From an uncultured Methanosarcinales archaeon (GTDB lineage Archaea; Nanobdellota; Nanobdellia; Woesearchaeales; CAYNLP01): DNA of 32,134 nucleotides. Of the stretch, positions 12,098 to 27,200 are shown piece after piece. The position numbers and the translations under genes are program-made. Where the stretch lies: the NCBI GenBank assembly GCA_964459935.1, contig CAYWOP010000001.1:1-32134 (forward strand), in the 5' to 3' direction. Below the pieces are notes generated by a model. The model was not told where the DNA came from, ran no database searches, and worked only from the letters and a program-made list of their open reading frames with translations. Position 1 is the first letter of the stretch, and every line of letters starts with the position of its first letter.

Positions 12098-12754
12098 TCA
12101 GCTCACCGTCCACGTCGTGTTCTTCGTAGCGTTGATCCAGTACCCTCGTCCGGGCCTGGTCTCGTTCAGTTCCTGCGTCTCGTTCGGTACGTGGACGAGG
12201 AACGTTTTGGAATCGGGATCGTACCCGACCACTTTCGTATAATTGTCTATGGAGTCGAAGACATCGGGAACGGGTCGAGACTCGTTCAACGGGTACCCGA
12301 CGAAGTTGTATCCTTCAGTGAGTGCGATGTCGGTGGTCGCGAGCACACCGTCGCGGTCGAACGTCGATGTGCTGTTGACGACGATCCAGTACGCGTTCCT
12401 CCTGGTGAAGAACTCAAGGTCCTGTACGGTCCAGTTCGGCAGGTTCGGATTGTATGTTCTCCAGGGATCGGCTTCTCCTTCTTTGTACGTCCGGACGCTT
12501 CCCAAGTCCTCGATATCCTGCACGATATCGCTCCGGGGGACGAAGTCGCCGATGCAGAAGAAGGAGACCAGGTTCGCCCCTTTCCGCAGTGTGATGTTGC
12601 AACTCGTGTTTGCTGCACCGCTCACGTTCACGGTCGTCGCCACTTCTCCTGTTATCGTGGTGGCGCTCCGCTCGGGCGGGTGCACGTGGCCGAGTATGAT
12701 CAGGGCTATCACTGCCACGAGGAGCAGCAAGGCGATCTCAGTCTTCCTCCGCAT
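12098..12754 (-). CDS. Secreted or membrane-anchored protein of unknown function
   Basis: 218 aa. N-terminal anchor/signal MRRKTEIALLLLVAVIALIILG. Internal repeat signature ITLRKGANLVSFFC / IALTEGYNFVGYPL and C-terminal RPGRGYWINAT. Its stop is 1 nt from the start of the 617-aa gene, and its start overlaps the AbrB-like gene by 17 nt. Confidence 0.75.
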   Translation of the reverse strand: MRRKTEIALLLLVAVIALIILGHVHPPERSATTITGEVATTVNVSGAANTSCNITLRKGANLVSFFCIGDFVPRSDIVQDIEDLGSVRTYKEGEADPWRTYNPNLPNWTVQDLEFFTRRNAYWIVVNSTSTFDRDGVLATTDIALTEGYNFVGYPLNESRPVPDVFDSIDNYTKVVGYDPDSKTFLVHVPNETQELNETRPGRGYWINATKNTTWTVS

Positions 12755-13028: not shown

Positions 13029-14720
13029 TCACTCCTCTTTCCGTCGGCGACGGATGATGAGGAGGATGAGCACAATCGCTACCGCGATGAGCGCGTAGAA
13101 GAGGTAGTCTCCGCTGGTCTCCTGATACGCGAACTCGGCGCGTTTTTCCTTGATAAGTGCGAGCTCCCGTTCACCGTACCGTGCGCGTACGGTGATCTCC
13201 TGATTGTCCTCAACGTCTGCTTCGGAGAGCTCTACGGGTACCGGTATCGTGGCCGATTCGCCTGGCGGGATCTCCGTCACGTCGGTGGCGCTGACGGTCA
13301 CTTGCTCTTCGTTGAGCACGAGGTCGACGAGCTCTATATCCACATTTGTCGTCACCTCTCCGATGTTGTCCACGTGTACGCGGAATTCCTGGCTGCCCCG
13401 GTCGTAGACCAGGCCGGTGAGGTTGATCTGTGAGTTGTCCGAGATATCGATTGTGTCAAGCGGTACCGAGGTTTCCAGTTGGTTCTCTAAAGAATCGGGT
13501 GATTCGCCGTAGACCGTGAAGATGGAGGCGTTCGTCGCGTTGGCCGGTAAGTTCGTGGGGTACGTGACGGTCCGCACGTCGTTCTCGCCCAGGAAGACCG
13601 ATGTGTTATCCCCGACGCTGGTTAGTGTTGTTCCTTGGTCGTCGGTGAGGGAGATCGTGGAGCGGAAGTACGTCGCTAAGTCCTCCGTGTTCTCATACGT
13701 GACCTCTAACTCACTCGTGCCTTCGTTGAACACGGCCGAGGTCACCGACATGTTCAATGAATAACTGGGAAGTGGGAATCGGTCGAGATCCTCCACCTCT
13801 GAGATGGACCCCTGTGGAGAGCGCGCTCCCTGGGCGAACTTCACGAAAACGCTCAGGCCGAGTTGGCGCCGCACGAACGTCGCGGCATCGATGAGCTCGT
13901 TCCCCACGAGGATACCCACACTGATATCCGAATCCTGGATGAAATCCCGCACCTGCGACGGCACGTTCTGCCGGCCGATGAACACGACAGGATCACTCCC
14001 AGACATGATGCTCTGCTCGATGAACTCGCCGTTGGTCAGGATGGCCTGCGACGCGGATTTCACGTCGAGATACCGCTCGACCATCGCGATATTGTTATCA
14101 AAGCGCCCTCCCTCGTTTATCGTCTCGGGGTCGAACTGCTGGAGCGCTTGTCGTACTTCTCTGTCAACCCGGCCCAGTATGATTACATCGTCCGGTTGTC
14201 GTTCCTCCAGGAAGTCCTGCACCGCTCCGATGGACAGTTCGTCCGCGAAGAGGACGTACCGGTTACTGCTCACGGCGTAGGGCGCTGCCGAGATCGCGTT
14301 GTACCCGTAGGAATCATCCATGACGATGAACCGGGTCACGTTGTCCAACCGCCGCGCTAGTTCAAGGTTGACGTTGTCGTACGTGTACTCCGTGGCGTTG
14401 TTGTACCCGTCCGAGAGGAGGATGGACTCGTAGCCGACGACGAACGGATCTTCTTCTGAGCTAATGACCTCCACGTTGTTCTTATCCGTGGAGATGCTGT
14501 TCAGCAAGGTCGTGCTGTACTGCGTGCTGGTGAGGAAGTCACTGTCCACACCTTGTAGATTGGCGTAGAGCAGGGTGGAGTATACGTCTTGCCAGGACGC
14601 GGAGTTTGCGATGACGTGGTCAGGAGCGGCCGATGCCGTGGCTGCTAGCAGTAGGAGGACGAGGAGAAAGAATCGGAATCGCTTCAACCCACCATCACCT
14701 ATACGGTCAGCCTCGGCCAT
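13029..14720 (-). CDS. Type I membrane surface protein with CWB2-like (cell-wall-binding repeat 2-like) repeats and CARDB/Ig-like domains
   Basis: 563 aa. Signal peptide FFLLVLLLLAATASA. Three repeats of the pattern VIANSASWQDVYSTLLYA / FIVMDDSYGYNAISAAPYAVSSNRYVLFAD...VIILGRVD / AILTNGEF...PVVFIGRQNV...VGILVGNELI. Beta-rich C-terminal domains (NIGEVTTNVDIELVD). TM helix YLFYALIAVAIVLILLII followed by RRRRKEE. Confidence 0.85.
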   Translation of the reverse strand: MAEADRIGDGGLKRFRFFLLVLLLLAATASAAPDHVIANSASWQDVYSTLLYANLQGVDSDFLTSTQYSTTLLNSISTDKNNVEVISSEEDPFVVGYESILLSDGYNNATEYTYDNVNLELARRLDNVTRFIVMDDSYGYNAISAAPYAVSSNRYVLFADELSIGAVQDFLEERQPDDVIILGRVDREVRQALQQFDPETINEGGRFDNNIAMVERYLDVKSASQAILTNGEFIEQSIMSGSDPVVFIGRQNVPSQVRDFIQDSDISVGILVGNELIDAATFVRRQLGLSVFVKFAQGARSPQGSISEVEDLDRFPLPSYSLNMSVTSAVFNEGTSELEVTYENTEDLATYFRSTISLTDDQGTTLTSVGDNTSVFLGENDVRTVTYPTNLPANATNASIFTVYGESPDSLENQLETSVPLDTIDISDNSQINLTGLVYDRGSQEFRVHVDNIGEVTTNVDIELVDLVLNEEQVTVSATDVTEIPPGESATIPVPVELSEADVEDNQEITVRARYGERELALIKEKRAEFAYQETSGDYLFYALIAVAIVLILLIIRRRRKEE

Positions 14721-14793: not shown

Positions 14794-15861
14794 GTGGGAT
14801 GTATAGCAGGACTGCTTGACCGGATAGAACAGTTCTTCACGGGCGGTACGCAGGAACGTTCGGAGGACGAGGATCCGCTTCCGTCGCCTGCGCGTTCCCT
14901 CTACGGGGACACGGTGGATGACACCACTGAGAGGAGCGAAACTCAGGACGAGCACGCGCAATCCAAAACGCCTTTAGATAGAGCGAAGCAGGATCAAGAT
15001 GCAGCCGACACTTCGGATGCTCCCGACGAACTGCCCGATATGCAGTTGGACGTATCCTCGGATGACAGGGAGGACGATACAGAGAGCGATGATACAGGAG
15101 GGCACGAGGAACATACCATCGTGCAGGATGAGCTGGATGAACGTGAACGGAGCACGAGAGAGCGGAGAGCCGAGTCATCCGGTGGTTATACGGAGCGAAC
15201 CACCACTGATTTCGATGAGATGGTGAGCGGTATCTACGAGGAAGGGGAGCTTTCCGCAGTGGAAGAGCACGGTGACGTGGCGGAGTTCGGCTTCTTCTCC
15301 GAGTTCCAGACCTTCCTCGAACGGAACGACATCCACATGGTAGGGGACGAGCTTGTGCAGAAGGATTTGCTGAGCGAGATGAAGCGGTACCATGAGGACG
15401 GGCGCGACGAGGATATCTACTTCCACACAGAGGAGATCAAGGAGGACCTTCGTGAGCGGCTACAAGAGCTCCGTTCGCTCGAGCATGACTGGTTCGAGCA
15501 CAAGGAGGCGTTGGCAAGGGAGGAGTCGCGTCTGCTCGAGACGGAAGAGCAGATCGAGGACGCCTTGGGTGATGTGCGTGAGCTCGTGGCGGAGCTTCGG
15601 GAGAAGTCGCAAGCCTCGGCGACGGTCGACGAGGAAGAGTATTTCCACGTTACCGACGGTTCTGTGGTGAAATCGCTGCGAGATCTCCGGACTGCACTCA
15701 GTGTGATGGACGACGATATCTTCAAGTATCACGTTGAGGATGGCAATGATTTCGCCCGGTGGGTCGAAGAAGTGTTCGATGATGCGACGCTCGCCGAGGA
15801 GCTACGGAAATGTGAAACGCGGGACGAGATGATTCAGGTGTTGCAAAAGCATCTAAAGTAG
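14794..15861 (+). CDS. Very acidic cytoplasmic protein with a coiled-coil and a conserved-looking C-terminal helical domain, function unknown
   Basis: 355 aa from a GTG start. TTTTTATAC at 14756-14764 lies ~30 nt upstream. D/E-rich disordered N-terminal half. C-terminal FHVTDGSVVKSLRDLRTALSVMDDDIFKYHVEDGNDFARWVEEVFDD. No signal peptide or TM helix. Confidence 0.7.
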   Translation: MGCIAGLLDRIEQFFTGGTQERSEDEDPLPSPARSLYGDTVDDTTERSETQDEHAQSKTPLDRAKQDQDAADTSDAPDELPDMQLDVSSDDREDDTESDDTGGHEEHTIVQDELDERERSTRERRAESSGGYTERTTTDFDEMVSGIYEEGELSAVEEHGDVAEFGFFSEFQTFLERNDIHMVGDELVQKDLLSEMKRYHEDGRDEDIYFHTEEIKEDLRERLQELRSLEHDWFEHKEALAREESRLLETEEQIEDALGDVRELVAELREKSQASATVDEEEYFHVTDGSVVKSLRDLRTALSVMDDDIFKYHVEDGNDFARWVEEVFDDATLAEELRKCETRDEMIQVLQKHLK

Positions 15862-15920: not shown

Positions 15921-16053
15921 AGTACCTAATTAGATACACTACTTACTAAAATCAACGAAAGAACTATCAAAATATTTATATATCGGTATACTGATTCGTA
16001 TATCAGAATAGTAATCATCCAGGCGCACGGATAACTGTACGAGGTGATGACCG
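15921..16053 (+). promoter_or_regulatory. AT-rich promoter/leader of the A1-B1-C1 operon
   Basis: TAATTAGATA at 15927-15936. TATA-like ATATTTATATAT at 15971-15982. Leader with GTATACTGAT (15986-15995) and SD GAGGTGA (16041-16047) 6 nt before the ATG at 16054. Confidence 0.55.
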
Positions 16054-16842
16054 ATGGTAACTGCAGAGAACAGTAAAGACACAGCACTGATGACACTGCT
16101 CGCGATCCTAGTCATAACTATCTCCGCGGGCGTGACGCACGCGATCGGCGAACCGGGAGGTCCGGACACGCTGGAAGAACAGCGGACGGAACGGTACACG
16201 ACGCTCGACCCTAACACAACACAGGCTCAGGCCGGTAACCTTACCGAGCTCAACATGACGGCCACCTCAGCGACGAAGGGCTGGCAGGGCTTCTTCGGGA
16301 ACATTTCCGGTACGATCACATTGGAAGATAGTGACGGCGACACGTTCTACGACTGGACCACCAACGAACCGGAAGGCGAAGTCTACGCGTCCACGAACGA
16401 AACTATTCAATGGAGCACGACGCGTTGCTTCGGTTTCAATGATGACGCTTCGCTCAACACCGAGATCAATCTGTCAACTGAAGAAAATCGAACCGGGTTC
16501 AACGCGTCTGACGAGGACGGGATCGACGAAACATTCGATCGAACGGATCATCCTACGTTCTACGTTGGTACAAACAAGATATCCGGTTCCACGTGTCCCA
16601 GCACGAACCCGTACGTGAACAACCAGTCGCAGACGAGTGACTTCTACAACGTGCTCCTGGAGGACGACGGCGAAAGCCTGATCTTCACCAGCATCCTCGA
16701 GAACCGTGACCCGGCGAACGACACGGACAAGGTCGGCTACGACGGGAACACGTATGACTTCCAGATGCTGACCGCGGAGGACGAGCACACACAGGCAGCG
16801 GCAGGATCCACCACCTATTACTTCTGGGTTGAGATCGAGTAG
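16054..16842 (+). CDS. Secreted sequon-rich protein, unrecognised family, subtype A (A1)
   Basis: 262 aa. Sec-type signal peptide ALMTLLAILVITISAGVTHA. Family motifs AQAGNLTELNMT, WQGFFGNISGTITLEDSDGDTFYDW, GEVYASTNETIQW..C, HPTFYVG..I...C, DFQMLT and C-terminal YYFWVEIE. Paralogous to 20220-21020 and 21828-22547. Confidence 0.9.
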   Translation: MVTAENSKDTALMTLLAILVITISAGVTHAIGEPGGPDTLEEQRTERYTTLDPNTTQAQAGNLTELNMTATSATKGWQGFFGNISGTITLEDSDGDTFYDWTTNEPEGEVYASTNETIQWSTTRCFGFNDDASLNTEINLSTEENRTGFNASDEDGIDETFDRTDHPTFYVGTNKISGSTCPSTNPYVNNQSQTSDFYNVLLEDDGESLIFTSILENRDPANDTDKVGYDGNTYDFQMLTAEDEHTQAAAGSTTYYFWVEIE

Positions 16843-16864
16843 GGTCATCACCTTCTGCCTGTAC

Positions 16865-16885
16865 CCAAGGGGTTCATCCCCTTGG
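16865..16885 (+). promoter_or_regulatory. Perfect 8-bp stem / 5-nt loop RNA hairpin in the A1-B1 intercistronic gap
   Basis: CCAAGGGG (16865-16872), TTCAT, CCCCTTGG (16878-16885), located between the A1 stop (16842) and the B1 ATG (16906). Confidence 0.6.
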
Positions 16886-16905
16886 CGGCAGGGGGCTTTA
16901 CCCTC

Positions 16906-17640
16906 ATGAAATCGAGAACCATAGTCATAGGAAGCGTACTCGCGTTGGCCGCGTTCTTCCTCTTCCCGCTCTCCTCCGCAGCACCACAAGGAGCGAGGAT
17001 CTCGGACAACGCGACGGCAAGCCAACCCACGTCCCCACCTGACAATCGCACAGACGACGGTGGCACCATCAACACCCTCATTCTGGACAGCACGCAACAG
17101 AACAACGAGTGGAAGGCGTACGTCGGGAACGTCACCGGTAAGCTCACCCTTGATGATGGGAGCGGCAACAGCATCTACGACTGGAGCCTGGACGACACGA
17201 ACATAGAGGGCGAAGTGTACGTCAGTCGGAACACGAGCATAACTTGGGGGAATGTGAGCTGCGCGAGTCAGTCCACAATCACCGCGGAAGAAGAAGCACT
17301 AAACATCAACAGTACGGACAGTGACAGTATCAACAACACGTTCAATGCTACGAATCACTCTTCTATGCAGGTTGGCGCGGAACCAATAAGTGCGGACTCT
17401 TGCAGGGCGACCGCCACGTATGTGGATGATTCATCGCAGACTGTGAACAAGAACGCTACGTTCCAGGAGATCTTGCTTGAGGATGAGGATACGAAGCTGG
17501 TGTACTCCACGTTCATCGAGCAGGACGCGGACAGCTACATCGACTCCGCTGGCTCCACGTTCGACTTTCAACTCATTGTAGGAGAGGACAAGAGTACATC
17601 CTCACCGACACCGTACAACTTTTACCTGGAGATCACCTGA
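16906..17640 (+). CDS. Secreted sequon-rich protein, same family, subtype B (B1)
   Basis: I prefer the ATG at 16906 (MKSRTIVIGSVLALAAFFLFPLSSAAPQGA) over the TTG at 16882 in the ORF track. Motifs GGTINTLILDST, WKAYVGNVTGKLTLDDGSGNSIYDW, GEVYVSRNTSITWGNVSC, DFQLIV and C-terminal YNFYLEIT. Confidence 0.85.
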   Translation: MKSRTIVIGSVLALAAFFLFPLSSAAPQGARISDNATASQPTSPPDNRTDDGGTINTLILDSTQQNNEWKAYVGNVTGKLTLDDGSGNSIYDWSLDDTNIEGEVYVSRNTSITWGNVSCASQSTITAEEEALNINSTDSDSINNTFNATNHSSMQVGAEPISADSCRATATYVDDSSQTVNKNATFQEILLEDEDTKLVYSTFIEQDADSYIDSAGSTFDFQLIVGEDKSTSSPTPYNFYLEIT

Positions 17641-18563
17641 TGCGGGGTTCGAGCATGCTCTGGATGACCGTAGCCCTGGGAATAGCGACAGTCGCACTGC
17701 TGTTGCTCTCTTCAATCGGCTTAGGAGCGAGCGTCGGGCCAAACTATCGCAACGTCAGTTCTGACACCACTGTGAATATCACGAATTCCGCACCGGAGAT
17801 CGTCAACATAACTGTCGATCCGCAGTCCATCACGCTCAACGCCGGTTCGTCGACGCGCGTCTACGTGAACACGACGATACGGGACTTCGACGGGCAGAAC
17901 GATATCGACACCGTACAGGGGACGTTCTTCGATCAATCGGTCTCGGTCAGTAACGATAGCGACGATAACAACTTTCACTACTCGGATAACGACTGCAATA
18001 AGACGAACGGCGATGGAGACGTCGCGAACTATTCCTGCGCGTTCGATCTCGAATATTATGCGAACAACGGTACATGGGAGGGGAACGTGACGGTCAACGA
18101 TACACAGAACTTCAACGACTCGGAGAACGAGACCGGAGATGTACAGGAACTACGGGCACTGAACGTGACACAACTCCTCGACTATGGTAATCTACAAGTG
18201 GGTGAGGCCAATACGAATCCCGTCACTGCGAACGTTACGAACTTCGGGAACGTAGATATCAACACCTCTGTTTATGGCTACGGCAACGAGACGAACGACG
18301 GACTAGCGATGGTGTGCGACGAGCGGAACATCACCATCGGTTACGAACGGTTCTCGGAGAACTCGTCTAAGACATGGGCGGACATGAACAACCTCACAAC
18401 TGATCCCCAGGACATCCCCGGCTTTTCTGTACTGCAGAGGACGAACGACACCGCGATCACCGATTCACGAAACTCGACCTATTGGAAACTGAAGGTTCCT
18501 GTGGACGAGAACCCTGGCGGTCGCTGCAACGGAACGGTCGTGTTCCAAGCTGAGTTCACTTAA
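17640..18563 (+). CDS. Secreted sequon-rich two-domain protein, unrecognised family C (C1)
   Basis: 307 aa. The ATG overlaps the B1 stop (TGATG). Signal peptide LWMTVALGIATVALLLLSSIGLGA. Motifs NITNSAPEIVNITV, RDFDGQNDIDTV, ANYSCAFDLEYYANNGTW, ALNVTQLLDYGNLQVG, NVTNFGNVDINTSVYGYGN, DGLAMVC and C-terminal CNGTVVFQAEFT. About half of positions are identical to 23277-24185 by eye. Confidence 0.9.
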   Translation: MRGSSMLWMTVALGIATVALLLLSSIGLGASVGPNYRNVSSDTTVNITNSAPEIVNITVDPQSITLNAGSSTRVYVNTTIRDFDGQNDIDTVQGTFFDQSVSVSNDSDDNNFHYSDNDCNKTNGDGDVANYSCAFDLEYYANNGTWEGNVTVNDTQNFNDSENETGDVQELRALNVTQLLDYGNLQVGEANTNPVTANVTNFGNVDINTSVYGYGNETNDGLAMVCDERNITIGYERFSENSSKTWADMNNLTTDPQDIPGFSVLQRTNDTAITDSRNSTYWKLKVPVDENPGGRCNGTVVFQAEFT

Positions 18564-18805
18564 CATGTCGTTAATTTTCTAAGTAATAAAAGCTATTAAT
18601 CAGATTGTGTTACTAATTAGATAATTAGATGGTGTCATATTTTAATGACGTTGTATCTAATTAGTTACTTAAAGAATAAAATACCGTTTGTTTTAATATA
18701 TAATAAGAAAAAAGTACGTATAATTATGATATAATATGTAAGAAAATGTGATAAAATAAGAAACATTTATATAGCGGTTGTCGGATAACGAGTATCAGCG
18801 ACGAC
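18564..18805 (+). promoter_or_regulatory. Strongly AT-rich spacer with TAATTAGATA copies, an imperfect palindrome and a TATA box
   Basis: TAATTAGATA at 18614-18623. TAATTAGAT at 18622-18630. Inverted copy ATCTAATTA at 18655-18663. Inner arms GTCAT (18634-18638) / ATGAC (18645-18649). TTTATATA at 18766-18773, ~33 nt before the ATG at 18806. Confidence 0.55.
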
Positions 18806-19300
18806 ATGGAGTACTCGACGACCATCGGCGACGTAACACAGCACGATTCAGAGCACCACGTTTCTCTTCACGTAGAGAAAAGCGCCGCAGCGACGGCACA
18901 GGAAACCGGTATCGGGCGAGAGGATCGATCCGGAGAAACACGCATACCGCTTGCAGTCTTCAGAAGCGATGCCGGACCGCTCCAAGCACTCGTCACATAC
19001 CTGCACGAAGAACAAGGATATGGATTCACCGAGATAGGTGAACTGCTCGACCGCGACCCTCGCACGATCTGGAGCGCATACGACCAGTGCGATGCATCCG
19101 CGGCGGATAGCGGGGAGGAGGACGTTCGGCTCACAGCGCTGGTAAGAGATGAGTTGACGATACTCCAGTCCTTAGTGTTCCATCTCAAAGCGACCAAAAC
19201 CTATCAAGAGATTGCAGATCTGCTCGACAAGCACTACCAGACCGTCTGGACCGTGCATCGACGAGCGGAGGAGAAGCTGGAGGTGGTGGATGATGCGTAG
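18806..19300 (+). CDS. Tandem helix-turn-helix regulator (two sigma-70 region 4 / LuxR-GerE-like HTH units)
   Basis: 164 aa, no signal peptide. Unit 1: LQALVTYLHEEQGYGFTEIGELLDRDPRTIWSAY. Unit 2: LTILQSLVFHLKATKTYQEIADLLDKHYQTVWTVHRRAEEKL. Family assignment is by motif only. Confidence 0.7.
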   Translation: MEYSTTIGDVTQHDSEHHVSLHVEKSAAATAQETGIGREDRSGETRIPLAVFRSDAGPLQALVTYLHEEQGYGFTEIGELLDRDPRTIWSAYDQCDASAADSGEEDVRLTALVRDELTILQSLVFHLKATKTYQEIADLLDKHYQTVWTVHRRAEEKLEVVDDA

Positions 19301-20006
19301 CCGCGTCCTCGTGCTGGTAAGTCTCCTTGCTCTTTCCTTCTGCATCACGGGGGTGGGTGCGGCACCGTCGGGGGCGAGCATCGTCTCCAATACAACGGAG
19401 GAGGCACCGGTCGAAGCCGCGGACAGTCTCAAGACCGCTGGCGGAACATTCACCACGCTCCTCCTGAACGGGACCGGGCAGACCGAGGCGTGGAAGGCCT
19501 ACGTCGGGAACGTGACAGGTAAGCTGACACTGCAGGACGCGAACGAGTACAGTATCTATGACTGGACGCTGAGCACGATATCCGGCGAAGTCTTTGCCAC
19601 GAGGAACGACAGCATCGACTGGGGCAACGTGGAATGCGCAAACCGTACGACGATCGAACAGACAGATACTGATCTCAACGTGAGCTCATCCGAGGAGATA
19701 AGCATCAACCGCACGTTCAACGAGTCGGTACACGAGAGCTTCTTCGTTGGGGGAACGCAGATCCAGCAGTCCACGTGTCCGGCCATCGCCACCTACGTGA
19801 ACGACTCGGCGCAGGAACAGGATACGAACGCGTCCTTCCAGGAACCCTTGCTACAGGATGACAGCGATCTGATCTACACGACACTGCTCGAAGAAGACGC
19901 GCCAAGCTACCATCCCAACAAGACGTTCGACTTCCAGATGATCGTCCCGGAGAACCGCCGGAACAGTGCGAATGAACGGTACTACTTCTACACTGAACTC
20001 ACGTAG
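19290..20006 (+). CDS. Secreted sequon-rich protein, subtype B (B2)
   Basis: I prefer the start MMRSRVLVLVSLLALSFCITGVGA at 19290, with GGAGGTGGTGG immediately upstream. It overlaps the regulator stop by 11 nt. Motifs GGTFTTLLLNGT, WKAYVGNVTGKLTLQD, GEVFATRNDSIDWGNVEC, DFQMIV and C-terminal YYFYTELT. Confidence 0.85.
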   Translation: MMRSRVLVLVSLLALSFCITGVGAAPSGASIVSNTTEEAPVEAADSLKTAGGTFTTLLLNGTGQTEAWKAYVGNVTGKLTLQDANEYSIYDWTLSTISGEVFATRNDSIDWGNVECANRTTIEQTDTDLNVSSSEEISINRTFNESVHESFFVGGTQIQQSTCPAIATYVNDSAQEQDTNASFQEPLLQDDSDLIYTTLLEEDAPSYHPNKTFDFQMIVPENRRNSANERYYFYTELT

Positions 20007-20219
20007 ATATCCCGGTACAGTGAACCAGATAATAGTTTAAGTGGAAAGTTAGATAATTAGATAGTAAAATTAATTAGTTAACATGTAAAAAATACTAATT
20101 AGATAACAAATAATAACTATTAGTTAGGTAATGCGACGAATTAGACTTACAAAAAATTTAAATATGGATTCGGGTGAAGGAAGGTTACGAGACCATCGGT
20201 CATCCTCGAGGAGGAAACC
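20007..20219 (+). promoter_or_regulatory. AT-rich spacer with several TAATTAGATA-like motifs, a TATA box and an SD, upstream of A2
   Basis: TTAGATAATTAGATA at 20049-20063. TAATTAGTTA at 20071-20080. TAATTAGATA at 20096-20105. TATTAGTTA at 20118-20126. AAAATTTAAATAT at ~20153-20166. GAGGAGG at ~20207-20214, 5 nt before the GTG at 20220. Confidence 0.5.
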
Positions 20220-21020
20220 GTGCGCCTGGAATCCTCCTCCTTCGATGGCTCGTCATACCAAGTGACCAGCAGTGAACACAGGATAAGTGACGCGGAGGAG
20301 AAGGATGCTTGGATAACTGCAGCTAGCTGCATCCTTCTCCTCCTACTTCTCTTTTCTACACGCGGTGGGGCCGTTTCCGGTCCTGACAGCATCCAAGAGG
20401 GCGGGAGCGAACGAGCGAACCTGTCCAATGCTGGGGCTACGGTCGACGCCCAAGCTGGCAACGTGACCGCCCTCAACATCGACGCGACAGCGATCACCGA
20501 AGCATGGCAGGGCTACTACGGGAATATCACCGGTTCCATCACTTTAGAGGATGCAAGCGGTGACGTGTTCTATAACTGGAGCTCGTTCAATTCGCTCACG
20601 GGCGAGGTATACGCGTCCCGGAACGAGAGCATCACGTGGGACGGTATCAACTGCACGAACAGTTCCGAAGTGCAGGACGAAAATAGCTACCTGGGCAAGT
20701 CCGGCGCTGAGTCCGACAGCGTGAACCAGACCTTCGATGATACCACGCATCCGAGCTTTCTCGTCGGGACTACACGGATCGAACAGGACACATGCTATAG
20801 CACCAACACGTTCTCCGGGGGGTCGCAGAACAGTGACCGGTTCCACGAAGTCCTGCTCTCTGACAATGCCAGCAAACTGGTGTACACGACCATCATCGAT
20901 GAGGATCAGGTGGGATTCGACAACGGGCAGTACGACTTCCAGATGCTCGTCGGCGAGAACGGCAACGAGACGCAGGAGTCCAGTACCACTACCTACAATT
21001 TCTACATCGAACTCACATGA
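20220..21020 (+). CDS. Secreted sequon-rich protein, subtype A (A2), monocistronic
   Basis: 266 aa from GTG (no in-frame ATG lies before the hydrophobic segment). Unusually long ~30-aa N-region, then ITAASCILLLLLLFSTRGGA. Motifs AQAGNVTALNIDAT, WQGYYGNITGSITLEDASGDVFYNW, GEVYASRNESITW..INC, DFQMLVGENGNET and C-terminal YNFYIELT. The start codon is uncertain. Confidence 0.8.
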   Translation: MRLESSSFDGSSYQVTSSEHRISDAEEKDAWITAASCILLLLLLFSTRGGAVSGPDSIQEGGSERANLSNAGATVDAQAGNVTALNIDATAITEAWQGYYGNITGSITLEDASGDVFYNWSSFNSLTGEVYASRNESITWDGINCTNSSEVQDENSYLGKSGAESDSVNQTFDDTTHPSFLVGTTRIEQDTCYSTNTFSGGSQNSDRFHEVLLSDNASKLVYTTIIDEDQVGFDNGQYDFQMLVGENGNETQESSTTTYNFYIELT

Positions 21021-21199
21021 TTCACTATTTAATGAATAAGTAAAGTCAGTTAATCACTGTAGTTAACTAATCACCAAAACATTTAAATAAGGGTGTGTGT
21101 GGTTGTATATCAACGTAGGAATCCGTATACTGATGACCGAATCGGTATCGGGTCCTGCCAAGTGACTACACAGAACAGTGACGACACAGGAGTGCATAC
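21021..21199 (+). promoter_or_regulatory. AT-rich promoter plus ~110-nt leader carrying a relic of an A1-type leader and first codons
   Basis: ATTTAAATAA at 21081-21090. GTATACTGAT (21125-21134) and TGATGACCGA (21131-21140) also occur in the A1 leader (15986-15995, 16045-16054). 21162-21194 reads VTTQNSDDTG in another frame, against A1 MVTAENSKDTA. SD AGGAGTG at 21188-21194. Confidence 0.5.
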
Positions 21200-21835
21200 G
21201 TGGACGAAGAAACGCTCTTCACAGCGAGTAAGTGGACGATTCTCGAACAACTGCAGGACGATCCCCAGAGTCCGAAACACCTCGCTGAAGAACTCGGCAC
21301 CTCCGTGGCCAACATTAGCCAGCAACTCCGGCTCCTCGAGATGGCGGACCTCGTCGAGAGCGAACGCGTCTCGAACAGGGAGAAGGGACAGCCACGTGTC
21401 CTGTACTCCCTGGCCGGAGACCACTCTTACCTGATCAGCGCGGCGAACGGCTTCGTCGAGAAGCAGTTCCACGAACTCAGCGACCGGAACAAAGCGATCC
21501 TCCGCATCTGGTTATCCGACATGAATCCGGAAGACCGGTACTTACTCGAAAAATCGTTCTGGCTCGTCGAACCGCACATCGATGATATAACAGGACTCTA
21601 TCTCGACACGACGAAGCGTCAGTTAGAGCTGACAGTCGTCACGGTCTCAGACTCGCTGGAAGACGAGCTCGACGATCTTAATATCGAAGACAGGAATGAA
21701 CGCGAAGCGACCATCACGATCACCACCGTGTCCGTCCAGTCCTTCCTGGACGAGGACGACACGGAACGGTACTACGCGATCTACGACACACGAGAGTTGC
21801 GGCAGAAACGACACAGGGAGGGAAACGATGAGTAA
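21200..21835 (+). CDS. ArsR/TrmB-like winged-helix transcriptional regulator with an uncharacterised C-terminal domain
   Basis: 211 aa from GTG. wHTH: KWTILEQLQDDPQSPKHLAEELGTSVANISQQLRLLEMADLVESERV...GQPRVLYSL. The stop overlaps the A3 start (ATGAGTAA). Confidence 0.8.
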   Translation: MDEETLFTASKWTILEQLQDDPQSPKHLAEELGTSVANISQQLRLLEMADLVESERVSNREKGQPRVLYSLAGDHSYLISAANGFVEKQFHELSDRNKAILRIWLSDMNPEDRYLLEKSFWLVEPHIDDITGLYLDTTKRQLELTVVTVSDSLEDELDDLNIEDRNEREATITITTVSVQSFLDEDDTERYYAIYDTRELRQKRHREGNDE

Positions 21836-22547
21836 CAACACCACGGTTTTGACAGTTCTCGCACTGGCAGTAGCACTACTCTCGCTCCAGGCACTCGCTG
21901 TTCCTGGCGGCCCGGACAGCATCAGCGTGGGGTCCAGCGAACGGGCGAACCTGGACAACACGACGAAGTCGACGCAAGCGCAAGCGGGGAACGTGACAGC
22001 ATTGAACATCTCGCAGACCACGATCACCGACGCGTGGCAAGGTTACTACGGGAATATAACGGGTCAGATCACGTTGGAAGATGCCGGCGGTGACGTGTTC
22101 TACAACTGGAGCGGACTGAACACGCTCAGCGGTGAGGTCTACGCGTCTCGCAACACCAGTATAACATGGGGGCAGATCAACTGCACCAACCAGACAGGTA
22201 TCAACGAAGAAGACAGCGTACTCGGGAAGAACGGAGCCGAAGCGGACAGCGTCAACCAGACGTTCAACACGCAGACACACCCGAGCTTCCAGGTCGGCAG
22301 TCGCTCGGTCGGAACGGATTCGTGCTTCAGCACCAACGCGTACTCGGGGAACGGACAGGACACCAGCCTGTGGCACCAGATCCTCCTCTCCGACAATGCA
22401 AGCAAGCGCGTCTACACCACGCTAATCAACGACACCTCGACCGCGTACGACGGGTCAACGAGAGACTTCCAACTGCTCGTCGGCGAGAACGGCAACGAGA
22501 CCAGCCAGGAATCGACGCAGTACAACTTCTACATCGAGTTGAGCTAA
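21828..22547 (+). CDS. Secreted sequon-rich protein, subtype A (A3)
   Basis: I prefer the ATG at 21828 (MSNNTTVLTVLALAVALLSLQALA), with AGGGAGGG upstream. Motifs AQAGNVTALNISQT, WQGYYGNITGQITLEDAGGDVFYNW, GEVYASRNTSITWGQINC, DFQLLVGENGNET and C-terminal YNFYIELS. Confidence 0.88.
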   Translation: MSNNTTVLTVLALAVALLSLQALAVPGGPDSISVGSSERANLDNTTKSTQAQAGNVTALNISQTTITDAWQGYYGNITGQITLEDAGGDVFYNWSGLNTLSGEVYASRNTSITWGQINCTNQTGINEEDSVLGKNGAEADSVNQTFNTQTHPSFQVGSRSVGTDSCFSTNAYSGNGQDTSLWHQILLSDNASKRVYTTLINDTSTAYDGSTRDFQLLVGENGNETSQESTQYNFYIELS

Positions 22548-22548
22548 G

Positions 22549-23274
22549 ATGAATAGAGAGAGTACCTCCAGAGAAGCACCGCTGGCCGTCCTCCTAGCGG
22601 TGCTTCTCTCCTTCTCTGTACTGGTGTACGCGGAGCCGCAAGGAGCCAGTATCAACGACAACAGCACGGACACAGGACCCACGTTCACTGCGGATAACCG
22701 CACGGACGATGGTGGAACGATCAACACGCTGACCCTCGACAGCACCGGGCAGAATCTGGACTGGAAGGCGTATATCGGGAACGTGACGGGCTCGCTCACA
22801 CTCGACGACAGTAACGAGAACACGATCTACGACTGGCAGAACCTCGACAGTGTTTCAGGAGAAGCGTACGTCGCACGAAACAACACGATCGACTGGGGAG
22901 GTGTCAGCTGCGCGAGTTCAAGTACCATCTCCTCGGAACAGAGTGACCTGGGCTTCGACCCTGGTGAAAGCGACAATATCAACTTCACCTTCAACTACTC
23001 GCAACACCCGCAGATGACCGTAGGGTCGAAGGACATCCCGCAGGATAACTGCAGCGCCACGTACATGTACAACGATAATACATCGCAGAGCGCTTCAAGT
23101 AGCAACAACTTTACTACGATACTCCTTGAAGACTCCAATAGCAATCTGGTCTACGGGACCTTCCTCGAAGATAAGAAAACGGGCTTCGACGGCAAGGCGT
23201 ACGATTTCCAAACGATCGTTCCGGATGAGGAAACCACCGCCACACCGTACTACTTTTACCTCGAACTCAGCTGA
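22549..23274 (+). CDS. Secreted sequon-rich protein, subtype B (B3)
   Basis: 241 aa, starting 1 nt after the A3 stop. Signal peptide PLAVLLAVLLSFSVLVYA. Motifs GGTINTLTLDST, WKAYIGNVTGSLTLDD, GEAYVARNNTIDWGGVSC, DFQTIV and C-terminal YYFYLELS. Confidence 0.9.
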   Translation: MNRESTSREAPLAVLLAVLLSFSVLVYAEPQGASINDNSTDTGPTFTADNRTDDGGTINTLTLDSTGQNLDWKAYIGNVTGSLTLDDSNENTIYDWQNLDSVSGEAYVARNNTIDWGGVSCASSSTISSEQSDLGFDPGESDNINFTFNYSQHPQMTVGSKDIPQDNCSATYMYNDNTSQSASSSNNFTTILLEDSNSNLVYGTFLEDKKTGFDGKAYDFQTIVPDEETTATPYYFYLELS

Positions 23275-23276
23275 CG

Positions 23277-24185
23277 ATGCGTGAAGTACTGGTCTCCCTG
23301 ACACTGGCGCTCGCGGGAGCACTCGTATTCCTCTCCGCAGTGGGTCAGGGGGCCACGGGGGACGCGGTGAACTTCCGGAACGTCTCCGTGGATACAACGG
23401 TGAACATCACGAACTCCTTTCCTGAAGTCACGGATATACGACTGAACGATCCGGTCACGCTCGAGGCGGGTACTACAAAACTGGTCGAATGCAATGTTAC
23501 GGTGCGTGACTTCGACGGGCAGAACGATATCGACAACGTCAACGCAACGTTCTTCGACCCGGACAACACATCGCTCAACGCACCCAATGACAACAATAAT
23601 CACTACGAAAACGCGAGCTGCACAAAGACGAGCGGGAGCGGGAACGTCGCGAACTACACGTGCGGCTTCAACGTCGAATACTACGCGAACAACGCGACGT
23701 GGAACTGCACATCCTTCGCAGAAGATACACAGAATGCAACGGGGAACCTCTCTAATAGTACGACCGTGGAATCACTGCTCGCGTTGAACGTGACACAGCT
23801 GATCGACTACGGCGATATACCGGTGGGGAACATCAGCAGCTCGCAGGAAGCGAACGTGACAAACTTCGGCAACGTGAACATCAACGTCAGCGTTCGCGGG
23901 TACGGCAACCAGAGCGGAGACGGCCTCGCCATGGTCTGCGAAGAGGGAAATATCAGCGTGGAGAACGAACGGTTCGACCTGAACAGCTCGGCCGCGTTCA
24001 ACGAGATGACCAAGTTGAACGACACGAAGAAGATCATCTCCAACTTCACCGTCGATCGAAGGGTCAACGATTCCATCATCAACAACACACGAAACGGTAC
24101 GTACTGGAAACTGCGCGTACCATCGAGCAGTAACCCCAGCGGTGTTTGCAATGGAACCGTCGTGTTCCAAGCGGAGTCCCCATAG
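23277..24185 (+). CDS. Secreted sequon-rich two-domain protein, family C (C2)
   Basis: 302 aa, starting 2 nt after the B3 stop. Signal peptide VLVSLTLALAGALVFLSAVGQGA. Motifs NITNSFPEVTDIRL, RDFDGQNDIDNV, ANYTCGFNVEYYANNATW, ALNVTQLIDYGDIPVG, NVTNFGNVNINVSVRGYGN, DGLAMVC and CNGTVVFQAESP. Confidence 0.9.
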   Translation: MREVLVSLTLALAGALVFLSAVGQGATGDAVNFRNVSVDTTVNITNSFPEVTDIRLNDPVTLEAGTTKLVECNVTVRDFDGQNDIDNVNATFFDPDNTSLNAPNDNNNHYENASCTKTSGSGNVANYTCGFNVEYYANNATWNCTSFAEDTQNATGNLSNSTTVESLLALNVTQLIDYGDIPVGNISSSQEANVTNFGNVNINVSVRGYGNQSGDGLAMVCEEGNISVENERFDLNSSAAFNEMTKLNDTKKIISNFTVDRRVNDSIINNTRNGTYWKLRVPSSSNPSGVCNGTVVFQAESP

Positions 24186-24192
24186 GAGGTGA

Positions 24193-24273
24193 ATGATGCA
24201 ACCACACAACGCTGACAAGGAAGCGAGGAACGAGATCGAACGCCTCGCCCGCGAGTGCGTCATGTACAATTAA
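24193..24273 (+). CDS. Candidate 26-aa micro-ORF with a strong Shine-Dalgarno sequence, directly after C2
   Basis: AGGAGGTGA at 24184-24192, then ATGATG. It encodes MMQPHNADKEARNEIERLARECVMYN. Its stop shares a TTAA with the convergent 1111-aa gene stop. No homology is recognisable. Confidence 0.25.
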   Translation: MMQPHNADKEARNEIERLARECVMYN

Positions 24274-27200
24274 GGCGGGTCGGCCTGGAAGACCACCGTC
24301 CCGTTGCACGTATTACCCCACTGCAACGAGGGTTCCAGGCTTGGTATGAAGAGTTGCCAGAACGTCGAGTTCTCATTCTGCTGCGTCGTCGCCAGTGATT
24401 CCACGGATAGACCGGAATCTTCATACGTACTTGAGAGGTTCTCCTTATCCGTGAAGGCCACGCCTGGCGTCAGCGCGTACCGCTCGTTCTCGATCGAGAT
24501 ATTGTTATTCGGACACTCCATCGCAAAGCCCGAACCGGACTGAGAGTCATTCCCTCCATAACCGAGCACAGACAGGTTGAAACGCGTGTTCCCGATATTA
24601 GTGACATTCACCTTCTGCTCCGCAGACGTCGCGTTTTGCTGCACTTCACCGTAATCGATGACGGATTCCGACACGTTCAACGCGAACAACGGATTGACCG
24701 TTACACCGTCCGTGTCGCTGTCCGTACTCTCGCCGTCTGTCGTCTCAGCCCTGCACGTCCATGTGTTATTCTCCGCGTAGTACGACACGCTCACGTTGCA
24801 GTGATACACCGCGGAGTCTCCAGCGGCTTGTTCTTGCGAGCAGGATTCGTTCGTGTAGTGGTTTGTATCGTCGTCGGGAGCGTCTGCGGAAACGCTATTG
24901 GAGAAGAATGTCGCGTTCACCAGGTTGATGTCACCGGCGCCTTCGCTGTCCTCAACGGACACGTTACAGAGTACCGTACGCCGGGTCCCGGCGTTCAGGT
25001 CGATCTCGTTGTCAGGAGAGCTGATATCATCGTCCACGGTCACTCCGGTCACGACCGGTTGTCCCTCCGCAATCCCCCCACCAGTGCTCCCGTTGAAGTA
25101 CGTGCAGAGCGGTTGGAACCCTGTCTTGAACTCCAACTGGGTGAAGTCGATGAACGATGTCTGTGCACCTCCGGTGTTCTTCGTCAGTTGGTACCGCAGG
25201 GAGACCTGGTTCGCCTCGGTCCTGTTCGTGATCTCATCTGACAGATCACACCGGTCCGTCACGTCAGTCCCGCTCGTATCCAGGTCGGCACAGGGTACCT
25301 CTTGGTATCCGGAGCCGTTGTACCATAATAGGGTGGGGCTATCTAGGTCAGCGTCCTCCGCGTGTTCCAACGTCCAGTTCACCTCCTGTATCTGAATACC
25401 CTCCGCGAAGCTGTTCGTGTAGTTGATCTCCCAGTAAAATACTTGTCCGTTTCCGCCGGACGCGGTGATCGTATCATCAACATCATCCGATACGTTGATC
25501 GCGGAGAGGTCTACACTGCTCCCATCGGTGGATTTCTTTCCCCTGCTTGGTGACGTGTTCGATCGGGTCGTGTTGATCTCGGAGATGTTGAAGACGGCGG
25601 TGTCGTTCAACTGGGAGTTCGTGTTATCGGTAGCGTTGACCGTGTAGATACCGTTGCACGTGTCCGTCGTGTTCCAGAACGTAGCGAAATCACCGGTGTT
25701 GTTCGTGGAAACGTTCTCTGGGAAGCTCGGCCCGATATCACCCGTGTCGTTATCGTAGATCGCGTACTCCACCGTGTCGGAGCGGGTGAAGTTGAGTCCC
25801 GAGATGTTCACGTCCTCGTTCCTTGCGTAGAGGAACTTTTCCGTCAACACAGTTGCGTTCCGCTCCGTGATATTGAAGGAAGCGGTCGCGTTGAGCCGTG
25901 GATAGGTCTGATCGGTCGCGGTCACGTTCGTCCTGCCGAGCGGCGCTGCGTAGGAGAGGTTGCGCACCGTCGTGAACGCACCGTTCGAGTCAGTCTCAGT
26001 TGTGAACTTGTCGGTCGTGTCGTCGCTGAAGGTGAACAGTACCTCTACGGTGGAGTTGGGGCTGTAGTCCGTCCCGGAGACGGTGACGGCTGCTCCCTGC
26101 GGATACCTTTCTTTATCGGTGGAGACTGTGGTCGGGGGTAGTTCGACCGTGAACGAGGCGGTGTCGTTCTTTGAAGCGTCGCTGGTCTGGTACGTGATGA
26201 GGTTGTACGTGCCTGTGGGATCGCTGTAGTTGAGCAAAAGCGTATCATTGGCAACGCCGTTCGGGTCCGTCGTTTCGGTGTTCACTGTGGTAGTGCCGTC
26301 GCTGTACGTGTAGTTGAACGTGAGTTCCGTGGACGCGTCAAAGTTCTCAGCCGTCGCAGATACCGCATCGCCGAGTTCATACGTGTTCGCATCGGTGGTG
26401 ACGATAGGGTCTGACACGTTTATGGTGATGTTCCTACGCACGCTCGCGTTTTCAAACCCATTCGAGTCTGTACAATTCCCACCCCATGTATGGTTGCCAT
26501 TGGTCAGTGACGTGGTGAACTCGAGCGTGGTATCCTCCGCAGGGCTTGTGTTCGTCGCGCGGGGGGAGTCGTCGATGATGAGCTCGCACGAGTCAAGTCC
26601 GGTTTGTGCGTCGCTCGCGTTGAAGCTGAACGTGACGTCGCTGGTCTGCGACACGGTGTCGTTCGCTGGTTGTTCCAGGTTGATAGCGGGCGGTTTCGTG
26701 TCGATCGTGATATTATATGTTGAACTGTTTCCTTGATTACTGTTCCCGTCGAGGCAGGTAACCTGCCACGTGTGCGGACCGTCCGGTATATCGGAGAGGT
26801 TGAACTCGTTCTGCGTCCCGTTCACCGGGTCGTTGTCCGTCGCGTTCTCCTGGTCGTCGAAGCGCAGCGTGCACGACGAGAGGTTCCTGTTATCTTCCGG
26901 TGTGTAGGTGAACGTGACGTTGCCGTCGAGGTCGAACGTGTCGTTCGCCGGGCTGTCGAGGGTGACGTTCGGCGGTGTCTGGTCCGGTAACTGGTAGGTC
27001 ACGTTGTACCTGAGCACGTCCCACGATATCGTGGCCGGACCGCCCTGTTGCGTGGATTTTGACACTTCGGACTTGATCTTGGCGCGCGTTCCGGACGAGC
27101 CGAAGAAGTTCCCGCACGTCCAGTTCTCAGTGGACGTTACCTCGGTGCAGGTCACGCCGGGTTCCGTCGTGGTTCCCGGACAGGAAGCCGTGACCGCGTT

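Follow-up and report, generated by a model that had tools for sequence, protein, structure and literature searches.

This report concerns a group of small secreted proteins encoded in a 32,134-nucleotide stretch of archaeal DNA (contig CAYWOP010000001.1 of GenBank assembly GCA_964459935.1, forward strand; hereafter the window), which is catalogued as coming from an uncultured Methanosarcinales archaeon. A sequence-only reading of the window had pointed to eight plus-strand genes for two families of such proteins, and open reading frame (ORF) calling located all eight at the places claimed (Table 1). Six encode proteins of the A/B type, comprising subtypes A (A1, A2, and A3) and B (B1, B2, and B3), and two encode proteins of the C type (C1 and C2). 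The order A-B-C occurs twice, as had been proposed. The gaps or overlaps of 1 to 2 nucleotides that had been attributed to both sets are found at three junctions (a 1-nucleotide overlap at B1/C1 and spacings of 1 and 2 nucleotides at A3/B3 and B3/C2, respectively) but not between A1 and B1, where the spacer is 39 to 63 nucleotides. Between the two sets lie the units that the same reading had described, namely, a gene for a tandem helix-turn-helix (HTH) regulator overlapping the start of B2 by 11 nucleotides and then the lone A2. A gene for an ArsR-like regulator precedes A3 and overlaps its start by 8 nucleotides. Rfam and tRNA scans of the window for RNA genes were empty.

The six A/B paralogs share 31 to 59% pairwise identity, and their alignment contains 34 invariant columns distributed across the full mature length. 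All motifs that had been quoted for them are present (WQG or WKAY-x-GN-[IV]-[ST]-G...TL-x-D, GE[VA][YF]..., two cysteines, DFQ, and a C-terminal Y[YN]F[YW]xE[IL]), the sole deviation being B3, whose second motif has alanine where [ST] had been given, and the alignment divides the six proteins into the two motif-defined subtypes that had been anticipated. Likewise, the proposed extension of the C family to the C terminus of a giant protein agrees with an alignment in which the final 264 residues of the giant protein g1111 join C1 and C2 (53% and 38% identity), the two C paralogs sharing approximately 52%. Because a comparison with hhalign revealed no homology between A/B and C past a weak N-terminal stretch, we treat them as two families rather than one. 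The A/B unit is a beta-rich domain of approximately 195 amino acids with one conserved cysteine pair.

Table 1. Genes, promoter regions, and candidate regulatory sites of the locus (window positions; lengths in amino acids, aa, or nucleotides, nt).
Feature	Position	Strand	Description
w931	7156-9951	-	Signal peptide, Ig/fn3-like ectodomain, transmembrane segment at 748, cytoplasmic coiled coil; at the locus edge in 11 other loci
w617	10243-12096	-	Signal peptide, Cys-rich extracellular modules, Gly-rich linker, 2-3 transmembrane segments, cytoplasmic coiled coil
w218	12098-12754	-	Small beta-rich protein, exported or N-terminally anchored; conserved upstream partner of w617
w563	13029-14720	-	Type-I membrane protein: signal peptide, CWB2-like alpha/beta region, Ig-like domains, transmembrane segment at 535, short tail
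w355	14794-15861	+	Acidic cytoplasmic coiled-coil protein
GGTATACTGAT box	15985-15995	+	59 nt before the A1 ATG, downstream of TATA-like TTTATATAT; candidate ArsR-type operator
A1	16054-16842	+	Subtype A, 262 aa, secreted; first gene after w355 (position X1)
B1	16906-17640	+	Subtype B, secreted, 244 aa from ATG; alternative TTG at 16882; position X2
C1	17640-18563	+	C-type, 307 aa; signal peptide and two tandem Ig-like beta-sandwich domains
HTH-B2 promoter region	18597-18742	+	Five TAATTAGAT-like boxes and TATGTAAG at 18735-18742
Tandem-HTH regulator	18806-19300	+	164 aa, two sigma70-region-4/HTH_23-like repeats
B2	19290-20006	+	Subtype B, 238 aa; position H (behind the HTH gene)
A2 upstream region	20054-20104	+	Three TAATTAGAT-like boxes
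A2	20220-21020	+	Lone subtype A, 266 aa; GTG start with GGAGG ahead
CGTATACTGAT box	21124-21134	+	66 nt ahead of the ArsR-like gene; candidate operator for autoregulation
ArsR/SmtB-type winged-HTH regulator	21200-21835	+	211 aa, C-terminal extension of ~130 aa
A3	21828-22547	+	Subtype A, 239 aa; position R1; A/B sequence used for modeling
B3	22549-23274	+	Subtype B, 241 aa; position R2
C2	23277-24185	+	C-type, 302 aa; modeled, mean pLDDT 93.8
g1111	24270-27605	-	Giant sequon-rich Ig-repeat protein (Big_7, Big_13), 1111 aa; last ~264 aa (nt 24270-25064) form a C-type domain
g1489	27602-32134	-	Giant fn3/Ig-repeat protein, 1489 aa, 5'-truncated at the contig end; last ~195 aa (nt 27602-28189) form a divergent A/B-type domain

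The sole hydrophobic segment of each of the eight proteins lies at the N terminus, ahead of an A-x-A-like site, and no further membrane segment is present. The claim that all carry Sec-type signals and no membrane anchor is upheld as regards these segments, with cleavage of the signal peptide being predicted from sequence. The N termini display n, h, and c regions, and the A-x-A-like site is succeeded by a conserved x-P-x-G motif. The conserved post-signal segments are beta-prone and take the forms A-x-P-x-G-P..I..SSR (subtype A), A-x-P-x-G-A-T-I-T-Y-N (subtype B), and G-P-N-Y-R-N-V-S-V (C). The chains end in ...YYFYxEL or ...VVFQAE and lack a C-terminal transmembrane segment or PGF motif. The proteins are also sequon-rich, as had been noted: they hold 3.7 to 8.3 N-x-S/T sites per 100 amino acids, 2 to 3 times the compositional expectation, while the value for the cytoplasmic proteins of the window is near 0. 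Sequon enrichment extends across the A/B family (median 2.3-fold), and the sequon GN[VI]TG occurs in 90% of its members. A, B, and C are probably N-glycosylated.

The isoelectric points (pI) of the eight proteins fall between 4.05 and 4.23. We considered and rejected low pI of the A/B proteins as a sign of halophily because the family is acidic everywhere and not just in the window (median pI of 4.3 among 254 A/B ORFs from related loci). The cytoplasmic proteins (GyrB, pI 4.8; S3Ae, pI 7.7) hint weakly at a salt-adapted proteome.

The earlier statement that both families are unplaced was borne out by searches of Pfam (2025), NCBIfam (June 2026), PHROGs, and the PDB (2026), and by Foldseek comparisons of full-length models with the PDB and BFVD. 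Scans of Pfam, NCBIfam, and PHROGs assigned no family to the A/B and C proteins of the window, no Pfam family was found in any of 102 aligned A/B homologs, and PDB sequence-profile searches with alignments of 6, 102, and 99 sequences returned only noise. A full-text literature search yielded no description of either family or of the locus. We conclude that the families and the locus are new, that no relative of the A/B fold is detectable in the PDB and BFVD, and that function can be inferred only.

An AlphaFold2 model of A3, built from the 102-sequence alignment, has a mean predicted local distance difference test (pLDDT) score of 80.9, with most 10-residue blocks from residue 100 onward exceeding 90, and depicts a fold of approximately 12 strands and two short helices. 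Residues 24 to 54, which lie immediately behind the signal helix, score below 50. Foldseek detected no relative of this model in the PDB (best E value 0.84, template modeling [TM] score no greater than 0.18) or in BFVD (best E value 0.22). The C2 model (Table 1) comprises a signal helix and two tandem all-beta immunoglobulin (Ig)/FnIII-like domains, and its matches are generic two-domain Ig proteins, including RbmA, integrins, Fab light chains, CsuE, and FimH (E values of 3e-5 to 1e-3, TM scores of 0.2 to 0.34). The sequence-only reading had suggested looking for an incomplete beta-sandwich that a neighboring subunit would complete. This was not observed: the A/B and C monomers are confidently predicted (pLDDT above 90 in the A/B core and 93.8 overall for C) as compact folds in which no missing strand is visible. 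Only the conserved 25 to 30 residues past the signal peptide are left unplaced.

Relatives of these proteins are numerous. Profile searches recovered 570 proteins for A/B and 347 for C, and nearly all of the matches listed are "hypothetical proteins" of approximately 240 or 305 amino acids from Woesearchaeota, Nanoarchaeota, or Nanoarchaeia metagenome-assembled genomes, with no Pfam domain. In an exhaustive hidden Markov model (HMM) search, the A/B family amounted to at least 1361 clusters at 50% identity, of which 483 had E values below 1e-30, and a scan of species-representative genomes found 273 encoded relatives. All six small A/B proteins of the window satisfy the signature of the A/B family of DPANN archaea (W-[QK]-[GA]-Y-x-G-N-[VI]-T-G...TL-x-D; GEVY-x-S-R-N; the cysteine pair; YDFQ; a C-terminal YYFY-x-E-L; and A-x-P-x-G past the signal peptide), with E values of 1e-97 to 1e-102 for the three window proteins listed. 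Identity to Woesearchaeota proteins ranges from 42 to 56% for C, from 30 to 45% for A/B, and from 42 to 51% for the membrane protein w563, and this level of conservation is unusually high for surface proteins.

These data leave little room for the possibility that the paralogs arose from a collapsed or duplicated assembly or that the ORFs are spurious. The paralogs are only 60 to 75% identical at the DNA level (with one exception, a 38-nucleotide stretch of A2 and A3 that is 95% identical) and therefore represent old duplicates rather than an assembly artifact. Hundreds of full-length homologs exist, and the same arrangement recurs on dozens of independent contigs from different studies. Nothing was found in favor of an artifact, and we reject this explanation, whose probability we consider practically nil.

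Many GTDB-representative contigs that carry this DPANN locus are titled "uncultured Methanosarcinales archaeon" (loci L005, L007, L008, L016, L020, L024, L035, L040, L041, and L044, and others; binchicken/SRP co-assemblies). Another is titled Euryarchaeota archaeon SM23-78, and one C homolog is labeled Nitrosarchaeum. These labels probably reflect taxonomic mislabeling or mis-binning, and the Methanosarcinales label in particular is probably wrong because the contigs hold the same locus as those labeled Woesearchaeota. As a separate observation, when ribosomal protein S3Ae of the window (6300-6857, plus strand) served as query in a word-seeded search of 5.8 billion proteins, only S3Ae itself was returned, whereas relatives of the secreted C-type proteins at 42 to 56% identity number in the hundreds. 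This would be explained by very sparse sampling of the lineage or, alternatively, by stronger conservation of the surface proteins than of S3Ae. We refer to the lineage as DPANN, Woesearchaeota/Nanoarchaeota-like, with an acidic proteome.

To describe the gene order around these families, we assembled 77 nonredundant loci, called their ORFs, and searched them with HMMs and with the flanking proteins of the window, noting that many loci are cut by contig ends. The description of a "duplicated cassette" proved accurate in that paralogous cassettes exist but was an understatement, since positions 7156 to 32071 form one conserved neighborhood of approximately 17 genes and 25 kb that includes membrane-spanning partners and dedicated regulators. 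The order in this super-locus is g1489, w355, A-B(-C), tandem-HTH-B, (ArsR-A), ArsR-A-B-C, w563, (one variable gene), w218, w617, and w931. The A-B-C synteny that was suspected to recur in related genomes does so: two consecutive A/B genes followed by C occur in 46 of the 77 loci and are preceded by ArsR in 34. An ArsR gene is followed by at least one A/B gene in 65 of 77 loci and by two in a row in 57, and the tandem-HTH gene precedes an A/B gene in 35 of 35 cases. The gene for w355 adjoins the g1489-type giant gene in every locus that has one (18/18) and leads into an A-B pair in 18 loci, and w218 is followed by w617 in 26. No ATPase, peptidase, sortase-like enzyme, or glycosyltransferase is encoded in the conserved gene set.

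Three or four proteins of the super-locus are membrane-spanning, with large ectodomains and cytoplasmic tails. The flanking proteins w563 and w617 are better conserved than A/B, with ortholog matches reaching E values of 1e-176 (w563; 42-51% identity to Woesearchaeota orthologs) and 8e-140 (w617), and their PDB profile searches gave only low-complexity or zinc-ribbon noise. The CWB2 family (PF04122) was detected at sub-threshold levels in 6 of 29 w563 orthologs (best E value 4e-4) and not in w563 of the window itself. Approximately 20 of the 29 orthologs carry a cytoplasmic C-x2-C...C-x2-C zinc ribbon past the transmembrane segment; w563 of the window stops right past this segment (…RRRRKEE) and lacks the ribbon. 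Elsewhere in the window, a gene for a 970-amino-acid coiled-coil protein (3300-6212, minus strand) with weak SMC/Rad50-like and apolipoprotein-like matches lies between an alpha/beta-hydrolase gene and the gene for S3Ae, and it has no counterpart in the 77 related loci.

The division of A/B proteins into two subtypes is closely tied to gene position. When the 254 A/B ORFs were clustered by average linkage and the first split was compared with gene position, subtype A was found for 73 of 73 genes located behind an ArsR-like regulator and for 19 of 19 first genes behind w355. Subtype B was found for all 35 genes located behind a tandem-HTH regulator, for all 18 second genes behind w355, and for 50 of 57 second genes behind ArsR. 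The A/B genes of the window obey the same rule. Because subtype tracks position almost exactly, A and B can be regarded as distinct, noninterchangeable partners. The duplication that produced them is ancient and fixed in gene order, with the two copies kept side by side since before the lineages diverged, and the pattern looks like the signature of a hetero-oligomer with defined roles rather than of redundant adhesin copies.

Modules of both families also terminate much larger proteins. The bodies of the two giants of the window consist of Ig, fn3, Big_13, and CARDB repeats, and the gene for g1489 overlaps the start of the gene for g1111 by 4 nucleotides. The C-terminal domain of g1489 is the seventh A/B-type domain of the window and lacks the cysteine pair (hhalign probability 98.2%, E value 5.6e-14). 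The open frame of g1489 reaches position 32134, such that a GTG at 32071 is not the true start; two orthologs that were compared align from their residues 209 and 284, which indicates that approximately 210 to 280 N-terminal residues are missing, and one ortholog starts with a signal-type hydrophobic segment. The exhaustive HMM search revealed many proteins of 350 to 2359 amino acids that bear an A/B domain at the extreme C terminus. The fusion proteins are variable in their N-terminal, presumably functional regions (Ig, fn3, CARDB, and beta-helix), and the A/B or C domain is always last.

A match to the Nup98-type S59 autopeptidase (PF04096) lies approximately 130 residues upstream of the A domain in 8 of 10 large proteins that end in an A/B domain, with scores of 19 to 31 bits that straddle the Pfam cutoff of 28.4. 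The catalytic HF-S/T motif is intact in these proteins (...VQHFSAYS, ...VNHFSNYS, and ...VPHFTTYS), and the N-terminal cargo is variable, for example, a NosD-like beta-helix. Such S59-bearing subtype-A proteins were noted outside the window (P0293, P0316, P0319, P0323, P0336, P0338, P0364, L056:8135-9943, and L050:5237-10654). They share with the Nup98 peptidase, which is functionally like SEA and GAIN domains, both the PF04096-like domain and the HF-S/T motif; the domain does not occur in the window, and the HFS motif is absent from its real ORFs. The presence of S59 in A-ending relatives implies that these proteins may cleave themselves, after which the cargo would be held noncovalently by the A-domain fragment.

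In our proposal, a Sec-dependent, multi-protein surface scaffold specific to DPANN archaea of the Woesearchaeota/Nanoarchaeota type would be built with A, B, and C as self-associating or anchoring modules, and the giants would join it through their matching C-terminal domains. We give this proposal an even chance of being correct.

A more specific alternative is that these proteins build a true fiber, with A/B serving as major and minor subunits and with C and the giant fusions acting as tip or adaptor, in which case a Sec-dependent, ATPase-free, pilus-like polymer would form by donor-strand exchange via the N-terminal extension. Like the donor-strand-exchange fibers (Fim, Pap, and Csu; archaeal threads and bundling pili; TasA), the locus has paralogous genes for secreted beta-rich subunits in tandem and in fixed order, and its giants end in a subunit domain, as do FimH and CsuE. 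The C model is Ig-like and matches CsuE (1.6e-4) and FimH (2.7e-4) weakly at a TM score of approximately 0.3. The conserved post-signal segment of 25 to 30 residues, which has an alternating T-I-T-Y/V-S-V-D pattern, remains unplaced in the monomer models (pLDDT from below 50 to 68). However, both models are confident, complete-looking folds in which no open groove is obvious, no match was found for the A/B fold, and the Ig-like matches are generic, with Fab light chains scoring equally. In the fusion proteins, moreover, the "extension" is an internal linker and offers no free N terminus.

Pfam and NCBIfam scans and inspection of the N termini agree with the earlier statement that the window holds no class III signal, pilus ATPase, or TasA/SipW signature. 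No pilin or archaellin match was obtained, and neither the window nor the conserved loci encode an ATPase or prepilin peptidase of type IV pili. TasA/camelysin (PF12389/TIGR04088) had no Pfam match among the window proteins and 102 A/B members, no NCBIfam match in the window, and no match among the PDB profiles, which likewise gave none for pilins or threads. Fimbrial, PapD, and Usher families had no Pfam match in the window, and chaperone, usher, sortase, SipW, and prepilin peptidase genes are missing from both the window and the conserved locus. A fiber fits the evidence, its positive support being the post-signal segment and the generic Ig-like matches, and we consider it unlikely.

The giants also bring to mind distal binding heads or diffusible host-interaction factors, whereby A/B and C would be lectin-like or receptor-binding proteins that are either free or located at the C-terminal tip of N-terminally anchored giants. 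In g1111 and its orthologs, the hydrophobic segment at the N terminus could serve as the anchor, DPANN archaea rely on host contact, and the best (nonsignificant) fold matches of A/B are legume lectins, carbohydrate-binding modules, and adenovirus fiber knobs, although these matches have E values of at least 0.8 and TM scores of at most 0.18. This reading accords poorly with fusion proteins in which the module is highly conserved and everything else varies: A, B, and C are far more conserved than the variable N-terminal regions across lineages that presumably have different hosts, and host-binding heads usually show the opposite. The fixed order of A, then B, then C, together with the position-specific subtypes, also suggests a stoichiometric complex rather than independent binders. 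We regard binding heads as quite unlikely.

Each cassette of the locus is preceded by an AT-rich promoter region with a TATA-like box, and two regulators are encoded within it. The ArsR-type protein matches HTH_20 (33.1 bits; cutoff 27) and HTH_5 (30.6 bits; cutoff 22) and has a PDB match to NmtR (E value 0.008). The tandem-HTH protein matches HTH_23 (32.4 bits) and Sigma70_r4_2 (28.2 bits) in Pfam. Its identity as a sigma-70 factor was rejected, as it has only two region-4-like repeats and scores 17.6 bits with TIGR02937 against a cutoff of 42.9. It may belong to the "sigma-70" family (fam00359) that has been reported to be prevalent in Woesearchaeota (Castelle et al. 2021, PMC8204110). In that case, the reported "sigma factors" would be the dedicated partners of subtype-B genes.

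Three types of motif upstream of these genes are candidate operators to which the regulators may bind. The first is a palindromic GTATAC box, (C/G)GTATACTGAT in the window, whose CGTATACTGAT-type copies number exactly two, one ahead of A1 and one ahead of the ArsR-like gene (Table 1). Among 7-mers, the GTATAC core shows the strongest enrichment ahead of first-A genes (15 of 19 loci, approximately 20-fold). Ahead of ArsR genes, where it is present in 43 of 72 loci (approximately 16-fold), no other strongly enriched 7-mer is as widespread. The second, TAATTAGAT, occurs at 10 sites in the 32-kb window when one mismatch is allowed, where 2.0 would be expected and none of 100 shuffles reached 10. 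All 10 sites lie upstream of A1, HTH-B2, or A2 (15924-15935, 18597-18666, and 20054-20104). This motif is not among the top enriched 7-mers of other loci and may be a lineage-specific operator. The third comprises TATGTAAG-type words, which are enriched 26- to 38-fold upstream of HTH genes (24 to 27 of 36 loci), with one located 64 nucleotides before the HTH gene of the window.

The membrane partners and regulators bear in opposite ways on the notion that A, B, and C constitute the S-layer of these DPANN archaea, that is, a multi-component lattice for which w563 and the other membrane proteins would be stalks. High conservation, glycosylation sites, acidic pI, and multi-copy paralogs would suit such a lattice, the membrane-anchored partners would parallel the SlaA/SlaB system, and w563 gives weak CWB2 and ArlF/G-like signals. 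In contrast, there is a dedicated regulator per cassette, there are several alternative cassettes, and neither Pfam nor NCBIfam produced a match to archaeal S-layer families or to a PGF-CTERM/archaeosortase signal. In Woesearchaeota and nanohaloarchaea, the genes that have been annotated as encoding S-layer proteins, and that are expressed, are different ones (PMC11606122, PMC10266531). Because of the dedicated regulators and these separately annotated genes, A/B/C are probably not the S-layer itself, and we rate the possibility as very unlikely.

Returning to the scaffold, we envision the following course of assembly. A, B, and C would leave the cell via the Sec pathway, and the free proteins would assemble noncovalently outside it, probably in fixed A:B(:C) proportions, with the conserved 25 to 30 residues past the signal peptide as the best candidate for the inter-subunit contact. 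The assembly would sit on the ectodomains of w563, w218, w617, and w931, and the giant adhesins and other (cleavable) cargo would attach to it by the A- or C-type domain at their own C termini. Switching between alternative cassettes would fall to the ArsR-like and sigma70-r4-like proteins, acting via the conserved promoter boxes. A lattice, a basal collar, or a fiber could each be compatible with such an assembly.

Several points weigh against a scaffold. The A-B, A-C, and A-w563 contacts are ones that we infer, and the A/B and C monomer models look like complete, self-sufficient domains. It is unusual for constitutive envelope structures to be encoded in operons headed by a transcription factor of their own. 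High conservation could reflect a stand-alone enzymatic or binding function of each protein, and if the signal peptide is uncleaved, the small proteins would be N-terminally anchored. Finally, separate S-layer genes are annotated in Woesearchaeota and nanohaloarchaea, as noted above (PMC11606122, PMC10266531).

In its logic, the locus is closest to the WxL clusters of Firmicutes (PMC10599100, PMC9772566). There, too, several small secreted proteins are made up of the module alone, larger proteins bear it at the extreme C terminus behind variable binding domains, and a conserved membrane-anchored partner (DUF916/DUF3324) is encoded nearby. Attachment in those clusters is noncovalent, as we propose for A/B/C. 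However, the two systems share no sequence similarity, and no Pfam match to the WxL domain (PF13731; C-terminal, approximately 200 amino acids with two W-x-L motifs) was found in 102 A/B members or in C of the window. The A/B/C hosts are archaeal and lack peptidoglycan, and their locus differs in having two unrelated module types in fixed order, HTH regulators, and partners with cytoplasmic coiled-coil tails.

The CWB2 family of Clostridioides difficile (SlpA and approximately 28 paralogs) similarly joins a common anchoring module to diverse functional domains and thereby furnishes a surface layer, and w563 resembles CWB2 weakly. The modules of the window, however, are A/B and C rather than CWB2, and the w563 signal is sub-threshold. 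To our knowledge, no secondary cell-wall polymer has been described in DPANN archaea. The SPEARE and other giant surface proteins of Nanohaloarchaeota (PMC6642349, PMC10266531) are, like g1111 and g1489, giant sequon-rich Ig-repeat proteins of DPANN surfaces and are thought to mediate host contact. SPEARE-type proteins carry a transmembrane segment and a cytoplasmic VirB4/TraG-like ATPase (PMC10266531), whereas g1111 and g1489 have no transmembrane segment or ATPase of that kind and end in C-type and A/B-type domains.

Taken further, the scaffold proposal would make A/B/C the building blocks of an unrecognized Sec-only, ATPase-free, self-assembling surface organelle of Woesearchaeota/Nanoarchaeota-type DPANN archaea and of the acidic-proteome lineage represented by the window. 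This organelle would be a fiber or basal lattice made on an unprecedented A/B fold and tied to the cytoplasm by w563, w617, and w931. By presenting interchangeable giant adhesins, some of them freed by Nup98-like self-cleavage, it would constitute a conserved host-attachment apparatus. We advance this view tentatively, as possible rather than probable.

Much of archaeal diversity consists of DPANN lineages, which presumably live attached to hosts, and the molecules at their contact surfaces are little known beyond a few cultured lineages. Among the proteins specific to these lineages, the majority are "hypotheticals" that are secreted or reside in the membrane (PMC8204110). The locus described here is a concrete candidate for how DPANN cells build or decorate their surface. 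It offers as a handle approximately 17 co-conserved genes, two unnamed domain families, membrane-spanning partners, and candidate operators for two regulators, along with a proposed attachment rule for giant adhesins, which would carry the same domain at the C terminus. A prokaryotic Nup98-like self-cleaving module tied to a surface anchor domain merits its own study. In addition, because C-type proteins retain approximately 50% identity across very distant lineages, they should be usable as markers or antigens for the labeling of uncultured Woesearchaeota.

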